64,000 nt of DNA from Usitatibacteraceae bacterium. GTDB lineage: Bacteria > Pseudomonadota > Gammaproteobacteria > Burkholderiales > Usitatibacteraceae. The notes under the pieces were generated by a model that did no database searches, was not told where the DNA came from, and saw nothing but the letters and a program-made list of their open reading frames with translations. The first letter of the stretch is position 1, and each line of letters begins with the position of its first letter. This document shows positions 54,558 through 64,000 of the stretch, in pieces. The DNA is taken from positions 1,105-65,104 of the forward strand of contig JBCKPN010000001.1 in assembly GCA_038901695.1 (NCBI GenBank), given 5' to 3'. Made by a program: the position numbers and the translations under genes.

Positions 54558-55631
54558 TCAGAATCGAATGTGCGTGGAGGCGTTGAGGCTGGCCCGCGAG
54601 CCGCGCCAGTCGTCAATCAAATACTTTGTGAAAGGCAACCCGGTTTTTTCAAAGAATCGCGGCCAGCCGATCCGCTCCACCCAGTCCGCCGTGCGCTCCC
54701 ATGGCCGGGCGTCTGCCTTGTAGGTGTAGAGAATTTTCTTGACCACTTCCGATACCTCAGGCCAGCGCGGCGGATTGTTTGGCAAGCCTGATGCAACCAA
54801 CTTCATAAACGTTGGTTTGCCGCGCGCGTTGGAATTCTTGCCACCAACCCAAATGGCAAGTTTGGAATGCTCCGGATCATTGATTTGCATTGGCGGGCAG
54901 GGCGGATAACAGGCGCCGCAGCAGATGCATTTCTTCTCGTCCACTTCCAATGAAGGCTTGCCGTTCACCAGCGCCGGACGAATCGCCGCAACCGGGCAAC
55001 GCGCGACGACAGCGGGTCGCTCGCATACGTTGGCGACCAGCGCATGATTGATTTTTGGTGGCTTGGTGTGCTGCACGACGATGGCAATATCGGCTTGTCC
55101 GCCGCAATTGATTTCGCAACAGGACGTAGATAGGTGCACGCGATTCGGCATCTCCTCCTTGATGAACTCTTCGTATAGGTCATCCATCAAGGCCTTTACT
55201 ACGCCTGATGCATCAGTTCCGGGAATATCACAATGGAGCCAGCCCTGTGTGTGGGCAATCGCGGATACCGAGTTGCCGGTGCCGCCAACCGGGAAGCCAT
55301 GTTTGGTCAACGCCTCAATCAGCGGCGCGACTTTGCTCTGATCCGCGACCATGAATTCAATATTGCTGCGGATGGTAAAACGCACGTGGCCGTCGGCGAA
55401 CTGGTCGCCAATGTCACAAAGCGTGCGAATGGTAAACAAGTCCATCTGCCGCTGGGTGCCTGCGCGCACGGTCCAGATTTCCTCGCCGATATGGGAAACG
55501 TGGTGCAGGACGCCGGGGCGCGGCCGGTCATGGTATTTCCAGTTGCCGTAGTTTTTCAACATCACAGGGTGCATGTACTGCTTGTTGTCCGGCACACCGC
55601 TCTCTATTGGCGCTCGCATTTCACCCATCAT
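54558..55631 (-). CDS. dsrB: dissimilatory sulfite reductase beta subunit (reverse/oxidative type by context)
   Basis: It carries siroheme/Fe-S cysteines and the ferredoxin insert CPVAAIRP...KCICCGACYPPCP. The length is 357 aa. Confidence 0.93.
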   Translation of the reverse strand: MMGEMRAPIESGVPDNKQYMHPVMLKNYGNWKYHDRPRPGVLHHVSHIGEEIWTVRAGTQRQMDLFTIRTLCDIGDQFADGHVRFTIRSNIEFMVADQSKVAPLIEALTKHGFPVGGTGNSVSAIAHTQGWLHCDIPGTDASGVVKALMDDLYEEFIKEEMPNRVHLSTSCCEINCGGQADIAIVVQHTKPPKINHALVANVCERPAVVARCPVAAIRPALVNGKPSLEVDEKKCICCGACYPPCPPMQINDPEHSKLAIWVGGKNSNARGKPTFMKLVASGLPNNPPRWPEVSEVVKKILYTYKADARPWERTADWVERIGWPRFFEKTGLPFTKYLIDDWRGSRASLNASTHIRF

Positions 55632-55678
55632 CTTCTCCTGGCAATTCTTTCGTGGAACATGGTGTTTCGAATCGGAAC

Positions 55679-56959
55679 CTATGCCGCCACTTTTTTGGCG
55701 TTGATCTTGGCGACTTCGTCGTCCCAGCCGTCCATCCGGACATACGGATTCGTACGCGGTGCTGTCACCATGTTTACATCAATTTCGACGCCGATGCCTT
55801 CTAGGAAATTTACCAGCCCAATGCGTTCGATCATCTCGCCGGTGCGCTCGTGCTCGAGCGCATTTTCAGCAAAGAAATCAATGACCTTTTGGCCGAGCTC
55901 AACCAACTTTTCGTAGTCTTCCTCGGTGTCGAGCTTCAGGAACGGAACGATCACCGTCCCCATCAAGTCGCCGATTTTTAGGGTCCGCTTGCCGCCAATC
56001 AGAATTGTTGCACCTTTATCAGTGCCGGTGGCCAACGCACCGGTCATCACGTTGATGCAATGCATACAACGCACACAGTTGCTGTTGTCAATCTCAAGAG
56101 ACTGGGTGTCGTTGATCGCGACACTGGATATCTTTTCACCCTTGGCGACATTCTTGGTTTCCTTGAGCATGATGGTTTTCGTCGGACAGCGACTGATCAC
56201 GTCATTGACCAATTCGTCCATGCCATGCTTTGCAAACCACTTTTTTGCCAGCACTTCGTCGGTCCGCATATTGTCGCGCCACGTGCCGATGACCGCCATA
56301 TCCGAGCGCTGAATGGAATTCATGCAGTCGTTGGGGCAACCTGAAAATTTGAATTTGAATTTGTAAGGCAGTGCCGGGCGATGAATGTCGTCAATAAACG
56401 TGTTCAGCACCTTGCGATGGGCTTTGGCTTCGTCGTAACAGGATTGCTCGCAGCGTGCGGCGCCAACGCAGGACATCGACGTACGTACCGCCGGGCCTGC
56501 TCCACCCAGATCGAATCCCAGTTCGTTGATCGCATTGAATGCGTCCTGTACTTTTGCAGAGGAAGCGCCCTGAAACATGATGTCACCGCTCTGGCCGTGG
56601 AACGCGATCAGGCCGGAGCCGTGTTCTCCCCAAGCGTCGCAAAGTTTGCGCAGAATGTCAGTGCTGTAGTGCATACCCGGCGGCGGTTGCACGCGCAAGG
56701 TGTGAAACTCTGCCGATTCGGGAAACATGCTGGCGACTTCAGAAAACCGCGGAATAATCCCGCCGCCATAACCAAACACGCCGACCGTGCCGCCCTTCCA
56801 GTAGCCTTTTCTGGTTTTGTACGAATGCTCCAGTTGACCCAGCAGGTCAACCATGTAGTCCTTTTCCTTGGCAAGACGCTTCAAGCCGGTGACGAAACTG
56901 GGCCACGGGCCGCTCTCGAGTTGGTCGAGCATTGGGGTGTCATATATTTTCTTTGCCAT
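55679..56959 (-). CDS. dsrA: dissimilatory sulfite reductase alpha subunit (reverse/oxidative type by context)
   Basis: The motifs MSCVGAARCEQSC and FSGCPNDC are present. The ferredoxin insert reads CPTKTI...CVRCMHCINVM. The length is 426 aa. Confidence 0.93.
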   Translation of the reverse strand: MAKKIYDTPMLDQLESGPWPSFVTGLKRLAKEKDYMVDLLGQLEHSYKTRKGYWKGGTVGVFGYGGGIIPRFSEVASMFPESAEFHTLRVQPPPGMHYSTDILRKLCDAWGEHGSGLIAFHGQSGDIMFQGASSAKVQDAFNAINELGFDLGGAGPAVRTSMSCVGAARCEQSCYDEAKAHRKVLNTFIDDIHRPALPYKFKFKFSGCPNDCMNSIQRSDMAVIGTWRDNMRTDEVLAKKWFAKHGMDELVNDVISRCPTKTIMLKETKNVAKGEKISSVAINDTQSLEIDNSNCVRCMHCINVMTGALATGTDKGATILIGGKRTLKIGDLMGTVIVPFLKLDTEEDYEKLVELGQKVIDFFAENALEHERTGEMIERIGLVNFLEGIGVEIDVNMVTAPRTNPYVRMDGWDDEVAKINAKKVAA

Positions 56960-57317
56960 GGCGCCTTCTCCTGTGAGAACTATTTACCTTGCGACAATCA
57001 TATTCCGGTCGCTATGACGACTCGTTGTTTTGTGCTGCATGCCGAAACGGTGCGGAATGCTGGTGTCCATATCCACCCGCGTAACAAGTGTAAACCAGTA
57101 CACTCTTTGCATGGTGGAACAGTACCATTGTGTTCGCGGCGTAACGATAGACCTGTTAGGGGGGGGGTGGCCATTACCCATATGGGGTATGCGCAATCCC
57201 CCGTCGTGGCTATAGACTGGGGTAGGGGCAATTCTGCCCAATGCTAGCCTGTGCGCAGTCGTCGCCCGCGCACGTTATAGGGCTACAAGGTGTCGGTATT
57301 TCGCGCGCAATCTTAGG
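56960..57317. promoter_or_regulatory. divergent promoter/regulatory region between dsrA and the Cas6-like operon
   Basis: The spacer is about 358 bp, non-coding, and lies between divergently oriented first genes. It contains a G9 tract (57159-57167) and the near-palindrome tacccatatggggta. No promoter boxes were assigned with confidence. Confidence 0.5.
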
Positions 57318-57602
57318 GTGAGATTCGCATTAACGTTGGGGCGACGCGGATTTGGCGCTCGCATGGTGCTGGAGCATGGCATGACCACAATTGTCCCGCT
57401 AGAAAAATTTCACGTGCCGTTGGGTGGGCAGGATATTGAACTGCAGCAAATTGATTACGCGGGCGGCGGAATGAGTCTGTTGCGTATCCGAATACGCGAG
57501 GGCAGCCGGTTTACAATTTTCGACATCGACCCCGTTACGGCTGCGCAAATTGCTGGTGCCATTCAAACTTGGGCGGACGCGCAATTACGGGACGTCGTAT
57601 GA
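57318..57602 (+). CDS. small hypothetical protein, first gene of the divergent operon
   Basis: The ORF is translationally coupled to the next gene (ATGA at 57599-57602). The start is uncertain: GTG 57318, ATG 57363 or ATG 57381. I recognise no family. Confidence 0.45.
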   Translation: MRFALTLGRRGFGARMVLEHGMTTIVPLEKFHVPLGGQDIELQQIDYAGGGMSLLRIRIREGSRFTIFDIDPVTAAQIAGAIQTWADAQLRDVV

Positions 57603-58216
57603 CAGAGCCAGATCGACAATCGACGTTCGTGGACGTTTTGTTTGCGTTGGAGGGCAGCGCATTGCCGAAAGACTACCGATTTCTGCTCATGCGAGAGATT
57701 GGCCGCCACCTGCCTTGGTTCGAGTCGGATGACTCGGTCGGCATGCACCCGATTAAGGCGTCCAAAACAGATTATGGAATGGTGCTGTTGCCGCGACGCG
57801 CCAAACTGATTCTGCGTATGCCGCAGACGCGCGTCGCAGAAGTTCGCGTGTTGATTGGGGCGGTACTCGATATTGCGGGTCATACGCTGCGTGTTGGCGA
57901 GTTCACCGTGCGCCCAATTCAACCATATGGCACTCTTTATGCGTACTTTGTCGTTGACGACACCGGAGACGAGTTGGCCTTTATACGGCGCATCGAAGCG
58001 CAGCTTGATGCACTTTCGGTTCCATGCAGCGTCGTCTGCGGGCAGCACGGCGCGCTACAGGGGGACGGGCGCGAGTTGGAGGGCTACAGCCTGATGTTGC
58101 ACGGTCTTGCAGCACCACACTCGGTCAGGTTGCAGGAAACAGGTTTGGGGAGCGATCGCAATCTCGGTTGTGGCATGCTCGTACCGCATAAATCAGTGGT
58201 GGCGGTAGGGTTTTAG
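57599..58216 (+). CDS. orphan Cas6/Cmx6-like RAMP-family protein
   Basis: The C-terminal glycine-rich loop LQETGLGSDRNLGCGMLVPHKS is typical of Cas6/RAMP proteins. The N-terminus FVDVLFALEGSALPKDYRFLLMREIGRHLPWF...GMHPIK resembles the Cas6/Cmx6 (type I-MYXAN) family as I remember it. The length of 205 aa fits. Confidence 0.55.
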   Translation: MTEPDRQSTFVDVLFALEGSALPKDYRFLLMREIGRHLPWFESDDSVGMHPIKASKTDYGMVLLPRRAKLILRMPQTRVAEVRVLIGAVLDIAGHTLRVGEFTVRPIQPYGTLYAYFVVDDTGDELAFIRRIEAQLDALSVPCSVVCGQHGALQGDGRELEGYSLMLHGLAAPHSVRLQETGLGSDRNLGCGMLVPHKSVVAVGF

Positions 58217-58265
58217 CTGCTTGAGATGGGTTGGCGGCAATTTTGATCTGGAAAGGATGGGCGAA

Positions 58266-58595
58266 ATGGCTTACTTGATCGACGGCGTTGAACGTGAAAC
58301 TGATGACTTGGGATACTTGCTGGAACCAGACTACGGCGCGGATGTACCGCCGGTGATTGCCGCCGCCGAGGGCATCACCCTGACCGATGCGCACTGGGAG
58401 GTCATCAACTACTTGCGGGAGGAATTCAAAGAACATGGACACACACCCAACTTTCGTAATTTGATGAAAGGGATGGAAACAATTCGCGATGGCGTGGACA
58501 GTAAATATCTGTACAACTTGTTTCCAATGGGGCCGGCCAAACAGGCCGCCAAGGTTGCCGGACTGCCCCAGCCGCTGGGTAAGGGTGGGTACTAG
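58266..58595 (+). CDS. DsrC/TusE-family protein lacking both conserved cysteines
   Basis: MAYLIDGVERETDDLGYLLEP...HWEVINYLREEF... parallels DsrC residue by residue. The C-terminal arm is PAKQAAKVAGLPQPLGKGGY, whereas DsrC has PAKQACKIAGLPKPTGCI. Confidence 0.75.
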   Translation: MAYLIDGVERETDDLGYLLEPDYGADVPPVIAAAEGITLTDAHWEVINYLREEFKEHGHTPNFRNLMKGMETIRDGVDSKYLYNLFPMGPAKQAAKVAGLPQPLGKGGY

Positions 58596-58642
58596 CAATC
58601 ATGCGTGCGGTTTCTTGCAGGTTTAGAAGGCGGGATTGAGCA

Positions 58643-59254
58643 ATGTGTGCAATGCGATTAAAGAGTCACTGGTTCAAGGCAGACAAACCCAAGACCATGA
58701 AACAAATGGCGGGCGCGATGGCGTTTATCACCTGGAGGGTCACCGACAATGCTCTCAAGCAACTGCGGACGGCCAAGTTCGACATCGACGCTGGCCCGCA
58801 GTATTTCGCTTTCACCAGAGAATTTCTGGTGTTTCTGATCCAGATCGCGGACCGCATCGCCTATGAACGCTTGCAACCACAAGAGCGCGTCGAATTTACA
58901 ACCGAGCTGGTGATCCGGCTGTCGGAAATTTTGGAAGAAAACGAAGATCGATTGCTTGAGCCGCCGCTGAACCAAAGTTACAGAAGCCGATTCATTGACT
59001 TATTCAACGAGCTTTCGGATCATTACGCGGAATTCAAATATGTGGACAACAATCCGGACTTCGCGTTCGTGCGCTATTTGGGTAGTCGAGTCACCGAACT
59101 CATGGTGGCGAAGGATCGCACTTGGGTGATGGATCAGATCATGGCCATTGAGGCACCCGACGCGATCAAATTTCTGCAGCAGAGTATGACGGACCTGTTC
59201 CATACGGGACCGCGCGAACGCTCGAAGCGGCCGGCGCGTGCTAGCGGCGATTGA
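58643..59254 (+). CDS. hypothetical protein, 203 aa
   Basis: The ORF has ordinary, non-repetitive amino-acid composition, unlike the shadow ORFs nearby. Its stop abuts the next ATG. I recognise no family. Confidence 0.5.
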   Translation: MCAMRLKSHWFKADKPKTMKQMAGAMAFITWRVTDNALKQLRTAKFDIDAGPQYFAFTREFLVFLIQIADRIAYERLQPQERVEFTTELVIRLSEILEENEDRLLEPPLNQSYRSRFIDLFNELSDHYAEFKYVDNNPDFAFVRYLGSRVTELMVAKDRTWVMDQIMAIEAPDAIKFLQQSMTDLFHTGPRERSKRPARASGD

Positions 59255-60172
59255 ATGGCAACCGTAATGGCCACGGCGTGCACGGCAACACGACGCGATA
59301 GTCCGTTCGAGCTCGGCAATGACGATGCTTATCGACGCTGGCGTGATGAAAAGCTGCTTGACTATCCAGCGCGAGTCGACGAACTCGTGGTCGACGTTGT
59401 CGATCCGCGCGCGCTCACGTCGGCTGAAAAGGCGGCGATACTGGCGCGTGTCCGCAAGACCAATATGGCGCTATACGCAAGCAAGGTGCGTGACGCTGAC
59501 AAGAACATTTTGCGCCTGCTCGGCGGGCAATTTGGCCTTCTGCGCCTCGATCAAAACATGCTTGCCGACGACGATGGCATTACGCAAGTTAGGGTCGCCG
59601 ACGCCAATGCGGGCGCAGCGCAGCGCTATATCCCCTATACCAACCGCCCGCTCAATTGGCACACCGACGGCTACTACAATTCTCCTGCGCGACGAATCCA
59701 GGCGATGCTGTTGCACTGTGTTTGCGACAGCGTTTCCGGAGGTGAAAATGCGTTCATGGACCACGAAATTGCTTATCTATTTCTACGCGATGAAAACCCT
59801 GATTACGTGCGTGCGCTCATGCATCCGGATGCCATGACGATTCCTGCGCGCGAAGACGACGATGGCGTTGCACGTGGCGCGCAGTCTGGCCCGGTGTTTG
59901 CGATCGATCCGCATAGTGGCGCGCTGCACATGCGCTACACGGCGCGAACGCGTAGTATCGAATGGCGACAAGATGCGAGCACTCAGGCAGCAGTAGCAAC
60001 GCTCGCCCAGCTACTCAACGCCGGCTCGCCCTATATTTTCCGCATGGCATTCAAGCCGGGAATGGGTATCATAAGCAACAACGTACTGCACGATCGCACC
60101 GGTTTTTCTGATGACGTTACCCATCGTCGATTGCTCTACCGTGCCCGTTACCTTGATCGGGTGGAACCATAG
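59255..60172 (+). CDS. TauD/TfdA-family Fe(II)/2-oxoglutarate-dependent dioxygenase-like protein
   Basis: The HxD motif is present in PLNWHTDGYY and the distal His in NNVLHDRTGF. The length is 305 aa. Confidence 0.6.
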   Translation: MATVMATACTATRRDSPFELGNDDAYRRWRDEKLLDYPARVDELVVDVVDPRALTSAEKAAILARVRKTNMALYASKVRDADKNILRLLGGQFGLLRLDQNMLADDDGITQVRVADANAGAAQRYIPYTNRPLNWHTDGYYNSPARRIQAMLLHCVCDSVSGGENAFMDHEIAYLFLRDENPDYVRALMHPDAMTIPAREDDDGVARGAQSGPVFAIDPHSGALHMRYTARTRSIEWRQDASTQAAVATLAQLLNAGSPYIFRMAFKPGMGIISNNVLHDRTGFSDDVTHRRLLYRARYLDRVEP

Positions 60173-60260
60173 TGACGTCGATGGCGACGCACTTAGAGAT
60201 GAGCGATTTTCCGGTGAGCCGCAGCAGTCGCCGCGCTTGGTGCGCTATTGAAGGGTATTC

Positions 60261-61745
60261 ATGACGCAATGGCTAACATTATGGCGAGCCGCGCACTTGA
60301 TCGGGGTGTCGCGAAGTGTGCTGCAACAAAAAATCCGGGTCGGGGAGTTGCAAACGACCGAGGGGACTATTTCGACCGAGGAATTGTTAAGGGTGTACCC
60401 GCAGGTTCAGTTGGAAGAGTCGGGAGCCTTTGAGCGCGTCTCGAAAATCAAGGAACAGGCGTTCGGGCGTCGCGTGCGTGAACATGTGCTCCCCAGCCAG
60501 GAGGTATTGGCACAACGCCTGTTCGCGCAGAGCGAGGAACTGACCGACTTGCGTCGTCACTTGCAGCGTTATCACAATCTGGTGGTCGCCCTGCAATCGG
60601 GGATTCACGATGTCGCGACGGCATCGAACATAGATGCACTAAACAGTCTTGAATTATTTGCCGAGAAGGGACTTGCGGATGTACTCGCCACTGAAGCCGC
60701 CGATGTGTTGGATATCATGAACGACGCGTTAAAGGTCATGTTCGCCCAAGTGACCATCCGACCAAGCGGACGCGAGTTTACGGTCGAAGGTCACGATACA
60801 TTGCTGCAGGCGGGGTTGCGTGCAGGGCTTCGGCTCAACTACGGCTGCGGCAATGGCACGTGCGGCCTCTGCAAAGCTAGGGTGATTTCCGGTGCTGTGA
60901 CGCGGACGCAGCCGAGCGACTATCCGCTTTCAGAAGCCGAAAAATTGCAGGGCTACACGCTGTTGTGTTCGCATACGGCGGCGTCTAGCGAAGTCGTCAT
61001 CGAAACTTTGGAGGCGCGCGGCTCGCAGGACATTCCACCGCAGCAAATCGTCGCCCGCGTACGCGCTGTCACGCCGTTGGCGAAGGACACGCTATTGCTC
61101 CACTTGCAGACGCCACGGACTAATCGCCTGCGTTTTCTTGCCGGGCAAAGCGTCACACTCGGCACCGCCACCAACGGCGACGATGAGCACGCCGATTATT
61201 CAATTGCGAGTTGCCCATGCGATGACCGCAACGTGCAGTTCTACATTCCGCGAAATGCGAAAGACCTATTTGCCCAACGGCTGTTTGAAGGCGCGGTGAA
61301 AGTTGGCGATAGCGTGAGTATCTGGGGGCCGCAAGGAAACTTTATTCTTGCGGAGACTCAGCGCCCGTTGGTTTTTATCGCGTGCGACACGGGATTTGCC
61401 CCGGTAAAAAGTTTGATCGAGCATGCCATGGCGGTGGACGCGGCGGAATCGTTGTCGCTCTATTGGCTGGCTACGCGTGCTGACGGACATTTTTTGGCAA
61501 ACCAATGCCGCGCATGGGGGGAAGCGCTGGACAATTTCGACTATTCGCTGCATACCGACAGCGATGTTGCCGCCGGCGCGCGACATTTTCTGCCCGCGAT
61601 TCGGGCGGATCTTTTTGTTACCCAATGCGAATACTATCTTGCAGGCTCCGCCGAGTTTACCCAGACTATGTCTGACGAGTTGCGCATGGCAGGCGTGCCG
61701 CAGCGACAGATATTTGCGTTGGAAATGCGGGAATCACATTCATGA
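60261..61745 (+). CDS. fusion protein: N-terminal HTH + coiled region + plant-type [2Fe-2S] ferredoxin + FNR-like FAD/NAD(P) reductase
   Basis: The HTH-like start is MTQWLTLWRAAHLIGVSRSVLQQKIRVGEL. The ferredoxin motif is CGNGTCGLCKARV...LLCSH. The reductase part shows RFLAGQSV, YSIAS and LVFIACDTGFAPVKSL. Confidence 0.7.
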   Translation: MTQWLTLWRAAHLIGVSRSVLQQKIRVGELQTTEGTISTEELLRVYPQVQLEESGAFERVSKIKEQAFGRRVREHVLPSQEVLAQRLFAQSEELTDLRRHLQRYHNLVVALQSGIHDVATASNIDALNSLELFAEKGLADVLATEAADVLDIMNDALKVMFAQVTIRPSGREFTVEGHDTLLQAGLRAGLRLNYGCGNGTCGLCKARVISGAVTRTQPSDYPLSEAEKLQGYTLLCSHTAASSEVVIETLEARGSQDIPPQQIVARVRAVTPLAKDTLLLHLQTPRTNRLRFLAGQSVTLGTATNGDDEHADYSIASCPCDDRNVQFYIPRNAKDLFAQRLFEGAVKVGDSVSIWGPQGNFILAETQRPLVFIACDTGFAPVKSLIEHAMAVDAAESLSLYWLATRADGHFLANQCRAWGEALDNFDYSLHTDSDVAAGARHFLPAIRADLFVTQCEYYLAGSAEFTQTMSDELRMAGVPQRQIFALEMRESHS

Positions 61746-62104
61746 TTGCAAATCAGGAGGCGCCACAACCACCAGCATCACTGATGGCTGTAGACAGTAA
61801 TTGTGCGGGCGGTGAATCGTTTGCGCTGATGGTGTTGGGCACGAGCATGGAGCCTGAATTCGTTGAGGGTGAAGTCATCGTCATTGAGCCGGATGGCCTC
61901 GCGACGGATGGTGCCTACGTATTGGCGTTTCTCGCCGAAGAGTGGACCATGCGGCAGCTGGTGCGGCGTGGCGACTTGTGGGTATTGCATGCCTTGAACG
62001 CAGCGTTTCCGGATGTGTCGATCCCCGACCTCGCGCCCGTCAAAGGCGTCATTATTCAAAAGTCCAAACCCGGGCGACGGCGGGCTTCCAAGCGATATGT
62101 TTAG
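61742..62104 (+). CDS. stand-alone S24 (LexA/UmuD-like) peptidase domain protein
   Basis: The Ser motif is LMVLGTSMEPEF with a beta-rich S24-like fold pattern, and no DNA-binding domain. Its ATG overlaps the upstream stop (ATGA). Confidence 0.6.
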   Translation: MIANQEAPQPPASLMAVDSNCAGGESFALMVLGTSMEPEFVEGEVIVIEPDGLATDGAYVLAFLAEEWTMRQLVRRGDLWVLHALNAAFPDVSIPDLAPVKGVIIQKSKPGRRRASKRYV

Positions 62105-62245
62105 GGCACCTCTAAAAATTCAATCAAGCCGATGATGGCAAGGCGCAAAGTCGCGAAAAAGCGCCGTGTACACATAGTACATGAGCATTTTGAGCGGCTT
62201 TGCAACGCCGCCAGCGCGGCTTCAGTGAATTTTTAGAGGTGCCCT
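62103..62245. repeat. MITE-like element, copy A
   Basis: The terminal inverted repeats are agggcacctctaaaaattca ... tgaatttttagaggtgccct. The left end overlaps the stop codon of the S24 gene. Confidence 0.8.
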
Positions 62246-62330
62246 TTAGTTGGTGGGCGCGTGCGGCAAACGTCGATCGTCGGCGCGTTCATATGCAATA
62301 TCAGATCAACTTGAGATGAAAGGTTTCACC

Positions 62331-62723
62331 ATGGAAAACCGCTACGGCTTCGGCAAACGGGTGGCAATGACATTTGACGCTGCAATTGACAAGGTGACGA
62401 AGGAGCTACAAGTAGAAGGATTCGGCATCCTCACCGAAATTGATGTGGCAGCCACACTGAAAAAGAAGTTGGACCACGACATTCCCCCGTATCGAATACT
62501 GGGTGCCTGCAACCCGCCGCTCGCCAAGCGCGCGTTGACCGCTGAACCGACTGTCGGTCTGCTGTTGCCGTGCAACGTGGTTGTGAGGCAGGACGCAGCG
62601 GGAGACGTACACGTTGAATGCATGGATCCAGCCATCATGAGCGAACTATCCGCCAACGCAGATGTGGGCCAAGTGGCGGCCGAGGTGCGCGAAAAATTGG
62701 TGCGTGTAATGAACGCACTGTAG
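62331..62723 (+). CDS. DUF302 domain protein
   Basis: MENRYGFGKRV...GFGILTEIDVAATLKKKL...YRILGACNPPLA is the typical DUF302 pattern. An alternative ATG lies at 62316. Confidence 0.75.
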   Translation: MENRYGFGKRVAMTFDAAIDKVTKELQVEGFGILTEIDVAATLKKKLDHDIPPYRILGACNPPLAKRALTAEPTVGLLLPCNVVVRQDAAGDVHVECMDPAIMSELSANADVGQVAAEVREKLVRVMNAL

Positions 62724-62768
62724 GCTGGTAGCAATTCAGGAATTATCAAAATATTCAATCTGGGGTCA

Positions 62769-62996
62769 GTGTTGCCTTACTATATTTATCAAGTATTCAA
62801 GTTCAAGCGGCTCGAAAAGGTGGCCGAGTACGCATCCTTCAAGGACGCATCAGCGCAAGTGAAGGCGTTGCGTGTCGCGCCCGACCTGCCACTGGAATGC
62901 ACGGTGAAGATGATCTTCGCGGAAAGCGAATGGCAGGCCGAGGACCTGCTGTCGGAAATTCGCAAGCGCGAGCGAGGGTTGGCCGGTGACGAATGA
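62769..62996 (+). CDS. small hypothetical protein, 75 aa
   Basis: The ORF has a GTG start and no recognisable motif. Confidence 0.35.
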   Translation: MLPYYIYQVFKFKRLEKVAEYASFKDASAQVKALRVAPDLPLECTVKMIFAESEWQAEDLLSEIRKRERGLAGDE

Positions 62997-63032
62997 ACAG
63001 GGCTGCCGCCCGCCAGATCCTACAAACGACGC

Positions 63033-63479
63033 GTGAGCGGGATCCGATTTCAAACGGCTGACGGCCGCATAAACCGAATACCGTGCGTATTCGAGAAGGC
63101 CGTGTTGTCTGGTTGCGTAACCTGTGAACTTGCATTGAGCCGCACTCAGGGCGAACGCGAGTCGATGGTGTGTGATTCGCAGGTCGCGCGCAACAATTGC
63201 GCGACATTGTTTGAACTGTTGCGCGAGCGGTCGACCTTTCCGCTCAGGCTACCCATATCGGATGAACCGATCACGCACGCCATGATCATGAAATTGCAGT
63301 GTGGCGGGCTGGTCGCGCTGCAGAAATCGCTGAGCCATGATTCGTCAGATGTTCACCGTTCCGTTATCAGCGCGCAAGCCCGTTGGGGCAGCTTACTGGA
63401 GTTGCCGTGGCCTGCCATCGTGGAGGGGGTAACGGGGTGGCAAGGACGGCCGCGCCGCGCGAGGCCAAAGACACCGTAG
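63033..63479 (+). CDS. hypothetical Cys-containing protein, 148 aa
   Basis: The ORF has a GTG start and several cysteines (CVFEKAVLSGCVTC, C..C). I recognise no family. Confidence 0.35.
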   Translation: MSGIRFQTADGRINRIPCVFEKAVLSGCVTCELALSRTQGERESMVCDSQVARNNCATLFELLRERSTFPLRLPISDEPITHAMIMKLQCGGLVALQKSLSHDSSDVHRSVISAQARWGSLLELPWPAIVEGVTGWQGRPRRARPKTP

Positions 63480-63568
63480 CAAGGGAGCGCGCCCGCGCCT
63501 CCGTCAGTATTGAAAACGTCGCAATTGCCCCCATCGGATATTGGCGGCGCAAATTCCGAGCCGAATGT

Positions 63569-63759
63569 AGGGCACCTCTAAAAATTCAATCAAGTCGATG
63601 ATGGCAAGGCGCAAAGTCGTGAAGGCGTGAAGGCGTGAAGGCGTGAAGGCGCGAAGGCGCGAAGGCGCGAAAAAGCGCCGTGTACACGTAGTACATGAGC
63701 ATTTTGAGCGGCTTTGCAACGCCGCCAGCGCGGCTTCAGTGAATTTTTAGAGGTGCCCT
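63569..63759. repeat. MITE-like element, copy B (with internal microsatellite expansion)
   Basis: The termini and interior match copy A, plus 48 extra bp. Confidence 0.8.
63619..63666. repeat. 8-bp tandem repeat, six units (gtgaaggc x3, gcgaaggc x3)
   Basis: Copy A has only gtcgcgaaaaagc at the corresponding place. Confidence 0.85.
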
Positions 63760-63878
63760 GTAGTCGAAATAGTGCTGGTGGCTGACAACGCCAACACGCA
63801 TGCATGAGCCCCGGAGTCGAAAATGATCCATTGGAAAGGTAAGGCGAGATATTCGTGTTGACCGCGCCACATGCCAAA

Positions 63879-64000
63879 ATGGTAATGGTAATGGTAAATG
63901 GCCGAGAAGTCCCCACCGACTCAGAGGGCTATCTCAAAAATCTCGAGGAATGGTCGGAAGAGTTCGCGCGCGTGTTGGCAGCGCAAGAGCAACTGGAGCT
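63879..64000 (+). CDS. TusE/DsrC-family protein (5' part only, cut by window edge)
   Basis: MVMVMVNGREVPTDSEGYLKNLEEWSEEFARVLAAQEQLEL follows the family N-terminal pattern (xxGxxxxTDxEGYLxxxxxW). The C-terminal cysteines cannot be assessed. Confidence 0.65.
   Translation, partial: MVMVMVNGREVPTDSEGYLKNLEEWSEEFARVLAAQEQLE

Follow-up and report, generated by a model that had tools for sequence, protein, structure and literature searches.

An iron-sulfur FNR-fold protein and an S24-like protein encoded beside dsrAB as candidate regulatory partners of reverse-Dsr sulfur oxidation

Reverse-Dsr (rDsr) sulfur oxidation ranks among the major routes of the global sulfur cycle, and how it is regulated is poorly understood. 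We analysed a 64,000-nucleotide stretch from a Usitatibacteraceae bacterium (GenBank assembly GCA_038901695.1, contig JBCKPN010000001.1, positions 1,105 to 65,104; hereafter the window), focusing on two overlapping genes that lie close to dsrAB. The first encodes HFF, which combines a candidate helix-turn-helix (HTH), a coiled coil, a [2Fe-2S] ferredoxin domain and a ferredoxin-NAD(P) reductase (FNR) fold; the second encodes S24-R, a peptidase S24 domain. An initial annotation, made from the letters of the window, had described these two open reading frames with an ATGA overlap and regarded the product of the first as a candidate redox-sensing regulator, and both frames and the overlap are present as it described. 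The data show the folds of the domains, the states of their motifs, the coupling of the genes and their linkage, phyletic and positional, to oxidative DsrAB; DNA binding, sensing, physical interaction of HFF with S24-R and lack of proteolysis are inferred from sequence, predicted structure and gene context.

The gene pair and its genomic setting

HFF and S24-R close a plus-strand gene row that diverges from dsrAB (Table 1). The row runs in the order DUF6967, Cas6/Cmx6-like, DsrC/TusE-like, an unknown 203-aa protein, TauD-like (dsrQ), HFF and S24-R, with the ATG of S24-R overlapping the TGA of HFF by 4 nt. The name dsrQ comes from Lenk et al. 2012 (as cited in PMC7596348), who gave it to a tauD-like gene lying upstream of dsrA in divergent orientation.

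To place the pair in a wider context, we surveyed species-representative genomes and recovered more than 500 relatives of HFF; the locus counts given here refer to the best 80, all of them from Burkholderiales, which include Hydrogenophaga, Curvibacter, Rhodoferax, Rubrivivax, Piscinibacter and Ideonella and among them several cultured strains. S24-R lies directly 3′ of HFF in 76 of the 80 loci and TauD directly 5′ of it in 78, and the row back to dsrAB is complete wherever the contig extends that far. The 4-nt stop/start overlap recurs in 45 of 75 loci, and the gap falls between -4 and +4 nt in 60 of 75. The coupling of the two genes proposed initially is borne out by a co-occurrence well beyond chance, with the conservation of the pair holding within one lineage. 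Further downstream, tblastn located the 75-aa gene in 71 of the 80 loci and the 148-aa gene in 60, and it found DUF6866 in 48.

Table 1. Coordinates of the features discussed; positions refer to the window unless preceded by the number of a related locus (L).
Feature	Position	Strand	Basis or remark
HFF gene	60261..61745	+	494-aa HTH / coiled-coil / [2Fe-2S] ferredoxin / FNR-fold protein; open reading frame, Pfam, homologues
HFF residues 1-50, predicted winged HTH, excisionase/MerR superfamily	60261..60410	+	AlphaFold2, Foldseek, conservation
HFF residues 56-164, conserved linker and long helices	60426..60752	+	AlphaFold2 and alignments; probable dimerisation coiled coil
HFF residues 164-238, plant-type [2Fe-2S] ferredoxin domain	60750..60974	+	Pfam Fer2, E 5e-14
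HFF residues 266-494, FNR-fold domain with degenerate flavin/NAD(P)H motifs	61056..61742	+	Pfam and motif comparison
S24-R gene	61742..62104	+	120 aa, UmuD′-sized S24 fold; PF00717 E 6.7e-14; CI and LexA alignments
ATGA stop/start overlap (translational coupling)	61742..61745	+	Read from the sequence (tcATGAtt)
dsrAB	54558-56959	-	Divergent from the plus-strand row ending in HFF and S24-R
Upstream genes of the same operon	57318..60172	+	Pfam and NCBIfam; order kept in 62-78 of 80 loci
Downstream kept genes (75-aa and 148-aa proteins)	62769..63479	+	tblastn in related loci
Palindrome ACCCATATGGGGT flanked by GATAGAC/CTATAGAC	57140..57240	.	dsrA / DUF6967 intergenic region; candidate operator
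Kinase/response regulator/rhodanese plus S24-R module	L204:6132-8787		
Kinase/response regulator/rhodanese plus S24-R module	L205:5925-9014		
Kinase/response regulator/rhodanese plus S24-R module	L206:880-4009		
Kinase/response regulator/rhodanese plus S24-R module	L208:3874-7267		

In the window, S24-R is followed by a DUF302 gene, the 75-aa gene and the 148-aa gene. A search of all 64 kb gave no DUF6866 homologue, whereas the 148-aa gene is followed by DUF6866 in the 48 related loci that hold it, and the end of the operon (63033-64000) therefore appears rearranged here. The DUF302 gene (62250-62723), located after an element noted initially as resembling a miniature inverted-repeat transposable element, occupies the place between S24-R and the 75-aa gene in this window only; DUF302 occurs anywhere nearby in 1 of the 80 related loci, and locus L103 also carries a DUF302 gene near S24-R.

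Among the operon proteins screened with PADLOC, the Cas6-like protein is the sole match; HFF, S24-R and the unknown operon proteins matched none of its defence families. The DsrC/TusE-like protein (58221-58595) is devoid of cysteine and shows a weak sub-threshold match to PF01726, the DNA-binding domain of LexA (E 0.0033, residues 54-85); if any protein here served the S24 domain as a 'head', this one would be a candidate besides HFF. Promoter and terminator scans of positions 56900-63600 returned sites no commoner than in shuffled sequence.

The intergenic region between dsrA and DUF6967 contains a palindrome whose ACCC-N3-7-GGGT motif is found once in the window; among 59 such regions from related loci, 46 have it. 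The arrangement is shared by these 46, many of which add a second palindrome ACCCGTACCGGGTATGGAC and a CGCGCTCAATGC box; where the window has a G9 run, the other loci have a conserved G-rich stretch. The palindrome may serve as a local operator or may form RNA hairpins for the Cas6-like protein. A distant HFF gene (L106) has one copy of ACCC-N4-GGGT 100 bp upstream; as a family-wide HFF operator this motif was rejected, being present in none of 71 distant HFF upstream regions.

Distant HFF relatives (40-50% identity) occupy other settings. In 45 of 80 metagenome loci the gene is divergent from recJ, with no searched operon partner nearby, S24-R and TauD included. Across loci L112-L181 the spacer between HFF and recJ measures only 44-95 bp, and in one large recJ-divergent subgroup it contains a conserved TTCAGAATCTGGTGAATTGCCGATTCTG element. 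Another distant metagenome locus (L188) holds HFF, two DsrC-like proteins, the 203-aa protein, S24-R and the Cas6-like protein together in a different order and orientation; such retention of membership with loss of order is good evidence of a functional link.

Other neighbourhoods were seen in single genomes. A gene pair encoding a MoxR-type AAA+ ATPase and a DUF2201 (metallopeptidase-like/VWA) protein (L103:6192-8748 and L205:9-2292) adjoins HFF in one genome and lies a few kb from S24-R in another. Away from dsr, S24-R is located directly downstream of mutL and beside a TauE sulfite exporter gene in one genome, and directly downstream of fpg in another (L194:3-1839 / L199:671-1875).

Folds and motif states of HFF and S24-R

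The three-part architecture initially proposed for HFF, namely an HTH-like N-terminus, a helical linker and a ferredoxin plus FNR-fold module, is supported. AlphaFold2 (AF2) models residues 1-50 as a strand (4-6), two helices (7-14 and 18-26), a second strand (36-38) and a third helix (39-45), with predicted local distance difference test (pLDDT) values of 78-88. The same elements appear whether the whole protein or residues 1-165 are modelled, and both models continue into long helices (56-75, 80-121, 124-143 and 149-164) that match the linker of about 110 residues expected from the outset; alignments place the conserved stretch ERVxxIKxEAFxxRVRExxLPxxEVLAxRL in it. Residues R9, A11, G15, R18, Q22, G28, G35 and P47 are invariant down to 33% identity and form a helix-turn-helix pattern, and the best-conserved residues of HFF, apart from the cluster ligands, lie in this HTH.

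Foldseek searches with the 165-residue model returned a top 50 composed almost entirely of MerR-superfamily DNA binders, at a non-significant best E of 0.064. The structural neighbours comprise NmlR, BmrR, SoxR, CarH, BldC, MtaN, mycobacteriophage Xis, RacA, CadR, CueR and MerR, with local superpositions of about 3 Å over 44-54 residues. Across 18 diverse HFF members, HTH_17 appeared below threshold in 10 (best E 4e-4) and HTH_8 in 12, while a profile search of the N-terminus against PDB sequences yielded coiled-coil noise only. Proteins of about 480-500 aa, which begin with this segment, account for almost all of its occurrences (359 clusters at 50% identity). We also observed stand-alone homologues of about 150 aa that consist of the HTH and coiled-coil part without ferredoxin or FNR domains (L108:9465-9902 and at least 14 class-sample genomes), and such proteins are common to many rDsr-bearing Gammaproteobacteria. 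An excisionase/MerR-type winged HTH is the best reading of the modelled N-terminus and is not proven: the modelled topology fits the excisionase/MerR-like HTH suggested initially, and the fold matches are consistent with it and stay short of significance.

The C-terminal 330 residues of HFF are nearest to reductases of the BenC, AntC, MmoC, GcoB and T4moF type in NCBIfam and PDB sequence searches (best PDB match 5ogx, E 3e-21), every NCBIfam equivalog score being far under its cut-off. Foldseek matched the HFF model to T4moF/GcoB/CarAd/BenC-type reductases (4wqm, 5ogx, 7c3a and 1krh, E 1e-16 to 3e-19, best 4wqm); the model has a mean pLDDT of 65.5, with a good FNR part and a poor ferredoxin part. 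The ferredoxin ligands Cys196, Cys201, Cys204 and Cys236 are invariant in every HFF alignment. FAD_binding_6 covers residues 266-361 with 31 bits against a cut-off of 21.1, and NAD_binding_1 reaches only 17.6 bits, under its 22-bit cut-off. Full-length homologues of about 490 aa number in the thousands, and the usual annotation of HFF is 'glucoseen reductase'.

We compared the motifs of six HFF proteins (38-100% identity) with those of six canonical ferredoxin-FNR paralogues of about 340 aa from related genomes. The paralogues keep RxYS and GGxF[ST]; in HFF the first has lost its arginine and often its serine too (ADYS, xxYP, xxFP; xxY[PH]) and the second reads xDxFA (KDLFA-type). Likewise, GTGFAP is replaced by [CW]D[TEG]GFAP (for example CDTGFAP), CGP by AGP or AGS, and the terminal aromatic residue is absent. 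HFF has gained the conserved motifs ASCPC[DE] and N[LQ]CR[AS]W, supplying Cys318, Cys320 and Cys416, which are nearly invariant across the family. Since four motifs and the C-terminal aromatic are all changed, the module, which retains an FNR fold, is probably not a canonical flavin/NAD(P)H reductase, and the 'complete' reductase module of the initial annotation does not hold.

These relationships nevertheless raise the alternative that HFF is a working reductase, passing electrons from NAD(P)H or another donor through the [2Fe-2S] cluster to the DsrQ dioxygenase or to rDsr, with the N-terminus serving only oligomerisation or docking and S24-R being an accessory subunit. Its kinship in sequence and fold with class-IB oxygenase reductases, the invariant cluster ligands and the TauD/dsrQ gene directly upstream all fit this idea, as do one distant HFF that exceeds the NAD_binding_1 threshold and one distant locus in which a DsrL-like flavoprotein adjoins HFF. 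Set against them are the altered motifs in every HFF examined, the recJ-divergent loci in which TauD and the other searched operon partners are missing, and the concentration of N-terminal conservation in the HTH residues. Moreover, Fe(II)/2-oxoglutarate dioxygenases normally need no reductase. We consider a reductase function unlikely, while ranking it first among the alternatives.

S24-R is confirmed as an S24 domain without a DNA-binding domain in its chain, as first described. It scores 52 bits against Peptidase_S24 (cut-off 23.3) and matches CI, LexA and UmuD chains in phmmer searches; NCBIfam lexA (28.6 bits, cut-off 111) and NF007621 (26.6 bits, cut-off 110) fall far below threshold. 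The serine motif GTSMEP (Ser35) and the TMRQL segment are both present. In HMMER alignments to lambda CI and LexA chains, Arg71 of TMRQL falls on the catalytic lysine (LexA K156, CI K192), a column confirmed by the CI K192A mutant chain in the PDB. The suspected lysine-to-arginine change is supported: the site is arginine in 120 of 120 close orthologues and also in orthologues at 31-56% identity from other Gammaproteobacteria, which keep Cys21, Glu25, Arg71, Gln72 and Asn86. No other lysine is invariant across the orthologues aligned; Lys107, tried as an alternative catalytic lysine, was rejected, being arginine or glutamine in distant orthologues.

The serine itself is replaced by methionine or tyrosine in 2 of 10 distant class-wide orthologues, while Arg71 and Cys21 stay invariant. 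Just 34 residues precede Ser35, leaving no room for the cleavage-site region of LexA and UmuD, in which an Ala-Gly or Cys-Gly site is carried on a strand-loop-strand segment some 35 residues ahead of the serine; the first 20 of the 34 vary, and Cys21, which is invariant, stands 14 residues ahead of Ser35. The chain ends in a basic tail (...Q-K-x-x-G-R-R-R...Y), and distant orthologues terminate in ...K-H/R-Y. With the lysine always arginine, the serine losable and no self-cleavage loop, S24-R is, as judged from its sequence, probably a conserved pseudo-peptidase and not half of a split LexA. A degraded lexA or umuD remnant, named initially as a possibility that would undo the proposal, is rejected, since S24-R forms a conserved family with its own invariant residues. 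Neither umuC nor another S24 gene occurs in the window, in keeping with the earlier remark that no umuC follows; umuC was searched in the window and not in the related loci, in 71 of 80 of which the 75-aa gene directly follows S24-R.

A further proposal of the initial annotation, a LexA/CI-type repressor distributed over two chains, fails on several counts. The predicted HTH is of excisionase/MerR type and bears no relation to the heads of LexA or CI, S24-R is without a cleavage-site region and can dispense with its serine in some orthologues, many HFF genes have no S24-R nearby, and about half of the genomes with S24-R lack HFF. In a related alternative, S24-R would be catalytically active as a serine peptidase with a Ser/Arg or other dyad, cleaving HFF or another operon protein in trans on a signal and so inactivating a repressor. 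The serine retained in nearly all close orthologues, the tight coupling of the genes and a conserved, low-confidence linker between the HTH and the coiled coil of HFF speak for it; the LexA variant K156R, furthermore, retains slow cleavage at high pH. At physiological pH, however, arginine makes a poor general base; no other lysine is invariant, the serine is lost in two orthologues that keep Arg71 and Cys21, and the cleavage-site region is absent from S24-R. The HFF linker is also equally conserved where the locus holds no S24-R, and 45 of 83 genomes with S24-R have no HFF to be cleaved. Trans-cleavage of this kind appears improbable, and less credible than the reductase alternative.

Association with oxidative-type DsrAB

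Both families are linked to oxidative DsrAB phyletically as well as by position. In an evenly drawn sample of 401 genomes from the phylum, in which DsrA was scored at 64% identity or more to the oxidative-type DsrA of the window, the HFF N-terminal domain was found in 8 genomes, all of them among the only 11 that carry DsrA, and in 0 of the 390 others; several of the 8 carry HFF far away from dsrA. A class-level sample of 300 genomes (88 with and 212 without DsrA) gave a corresponding result, with S24-R in 76 of 88 (86%) against 7 of 212 (3%), and the HFF N-terminal domain in 38 of 88 against 5 of 212. Several of the exceptions without DsrA are incomplete genomes. S24-R is also present in 38 of the 43 HFF-bearing genomes of this sample, and 45 of the 83 genomes with S24-R are without HFF. 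The effect sizes are large and span many families. One genome of the class sample (G784, 100% complete) carries the HFF N-terminal domain and S24-R with no DsrA match at E 1e-100; the pair can persist without DsrAB, perhaps beside another sulfur-oxidation route.

The position of S24-R outside Burkholderiales adds to this picture. In four gammaproteobacterial genomes S24-R is convergent to genes for a HAMP-GAF HisKA_3 kinase, a LuxR/NarL-type response regulator and a rhodanese. This module sits just past dsrR in two of the four; in a third it follows a dsrA-divergent row of tauD, Cas6-like and DsrC-like genes, and in a fifth gammaproteobacterial genome S24-R comes directly after such a row. These positions indicate that S24-R accompanies DNA-binding regulators and sulfur-transfer proteins at dsr clusters, with HFF being its partner only in the Burkholderiales-type operon.

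The same distribution bears on a role in DNA damage or repair, under which S24-R would be a UmuD′-like accessory factor, HFF a DNA-binding iron-sulfur protein, and their place at dsr incidental. The recJ-divergent HFF genes, the S24-R genes downstream of mutL and fpg and the UmuD′ size of S24-R could be taken in this sense. Both families, however, are nearly confined to genomes with oxidative DsrA and in many lineages lie within dsr clusters or at their ends, and umuC, looked for in the window and not in related loci, does not adjoin S24-R there. In addition, recJ, mutL and fpg are housekeeping genes, and adjacency to them can be plain synteny. We regard this explanation as very improbable, the least credible of those considered.

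A tentative regulatory reading and its relation to known systems

We tentatively propose, at a probability of roughly 0.4, that HFF and S24-R form a regulatory sensor/adaptor pair of reverse-Dsr sulfur oxidation; the regulator reading put forward initially is still the best one. The two proteins would be made as the co-translated distal part of the accessory operon that diverges from dsrAB. HFF would be a dimeric DNA-binding protein, its winged HTH and long coiled coil tethered to a plant-type [2Fe-2S] domain and to an FNR fold that appears to have given up the canonical flavin/NAD(P)H residues and carries a conserved Cys-Pro-Cys and a third cysteine. This iron-sulfur/cysteine module may report redox or sulfane-sulfur status to the DNA-binding head, a sensing logic resembling that of SoxR with different parts. 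S24-R, for its part, would act without proteolysis, binding or modulating a DNA-binding regulator encoded nearby: HFF in Burkholderiales and, in other Gammaproteobacteria, the NarL-type response regulator encoded beside a rhodanese.

Several observations weigh against the proposed sensor/adaptor pair. Pfam finds no significant family in HFF residues 1-163 (HTH_8, E 0.03), no curated HTH threshold was reached by the window protein or the 18 diverse members tested, and the Foldseek matches of the N-terminus remain non-significant. The ferredoxin domain is modelled at low confidence, and the loss of flavin and NAD(P)H binding is judged at the level of motifs, with one distant HFF above the NAD_binding_1 cut-off. 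The GxSM serine persists in 119 of 120 close S24-R orthologues, which leaves room for residual catalysis. The gammaproteobacterial S24-R genes are convergent to the two-component genes and hence not in the same operon with them, and, the palindrome being absent upstream of the 71 distant HFF genes, no operator is assigned to HFF. Finally, the sampled genomes are related and their counts non-independent, so that Fisher p-values overstate the association with DsrA.

A more specific version, which we regard as improbable, makes S24-R a new kind of pseudo-protease that senses sulfane sulfur through persulfidation of Cys21 and switches its partner binding, so that rDsr transcription would follow stored sulfur. 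Cys21 lies in an N-terminal arm just upstream of the former active site with Ser, Arg71, Gln72 and Asn86, and could be persulfidated by the rhodanese in Gammaproteobacteria or by DsrC/TusE-like proteins in the Burkholderiales operon. The modification would switch the binding of S24-R to HFF or to the NarL-type response regulator, and HFF would add a redox input through the [2Fe-2S]/Cys-Pro-Cys site that replaces the FNR flavin.

Both folds were already known; the novelty lies in the variant state of each, in their coupling and above all in how nearly exclusively they accompany oxidative DsrAB, an association of which we found no earlier description. HFF and S24-R probably constitute an undescribed control layer of reverse-Dsr sulfur oxidation, offering two concrete candidates for a missing level of control in a pathway for which cultured carriers exist, among them Hydrogenophaga aromaticivorans D2P1, Curvibacter sp. 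PAE-UM, Piscinibacter defluvii SH-1 and Azohydromonas sediminis. An S24 fold known for self-cleavage appears to have been converted to a non-catalytic module, and an FNR fold to have lost its flavin/NAD(P)H motifs and gained cysteines beside a retained [2Fe-2S] domain. S24-R could, moreover, provide an additional genomic marker for oxidative-type Dsr systems.

Our literature search found nothing on an HTH-Fer2-FNR protein or an S24-like protein beside dsr, nor on DUF6967, DUF6866 or 'peptidase S24' together with dsr terms, and 'glucoseen reductase' was never found together with dsrAB or thiosulfate. The nearest described context is that of dsrQ and the dsr accessory genes of aerobic chemotrophic sulfur oxidisers, which occupy the same genomic place; here, HFF and S24-R stand directly downstream of dsrQ, whereas the excerpted text of PMC7596348 gives only the tauD-like gene at that place and leaves HTH-Fer2-FNR and S24-like proteins unmentioned.

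Among known proteins, the class-IB oxygenase reductases (BenC, AntC, T4moF, GcoB, CarAd, MmoC) share with HFF the order of Fer2, FAD_binding_6 and NAD-binding folds and the CX4CX2C...C ligands. HFF differs from them in its extra 160-residue HTH/coiled-coil N-terminus, in its substituted flavin/NAD(P)H motifs and terminal aromatic, in its new Cys-Pro-Cys and Cys motifs, and in having no Rieske or diiron oxygenase partner nearby. SoxR and other MerR-family sensors resemble HFF in outline, with an N-terminal winged HTH, which in HFF is predicted, a long coiled-coil helix and a C-terminal sensor, which in SoxR is a [2Fe-2S] cluster. In SoxR that cluster is held by a short CX2CXCX5C loop, whereas HFF devotes a whole ferredoxin domain to it and carries an appended FNR-fold domain; its sequence and fold scores against these sensors are non-significant, and no MerR-type operator or long-spacer promoter was found at the HFF loci scanned.

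S24-R, in turn, has the β-fold and GxSM motif of UmuD′ and of the C-terminal domains of LexA and lambda CI, and the size of processed UmuD′. Unlike these proteins it has arginine invariantly in place of the lysine, a serine that is not universal and no Ala/Cys-Gly cleavage loop, and it lacks both a DNA-binding domain and an adjacent umuC. It is linked to dsr rather than to the SOS response, and is distinguished by a set of invariant residues of its own (Cys21, Glu25, Gln72 and Asn86) together with its basic tail.

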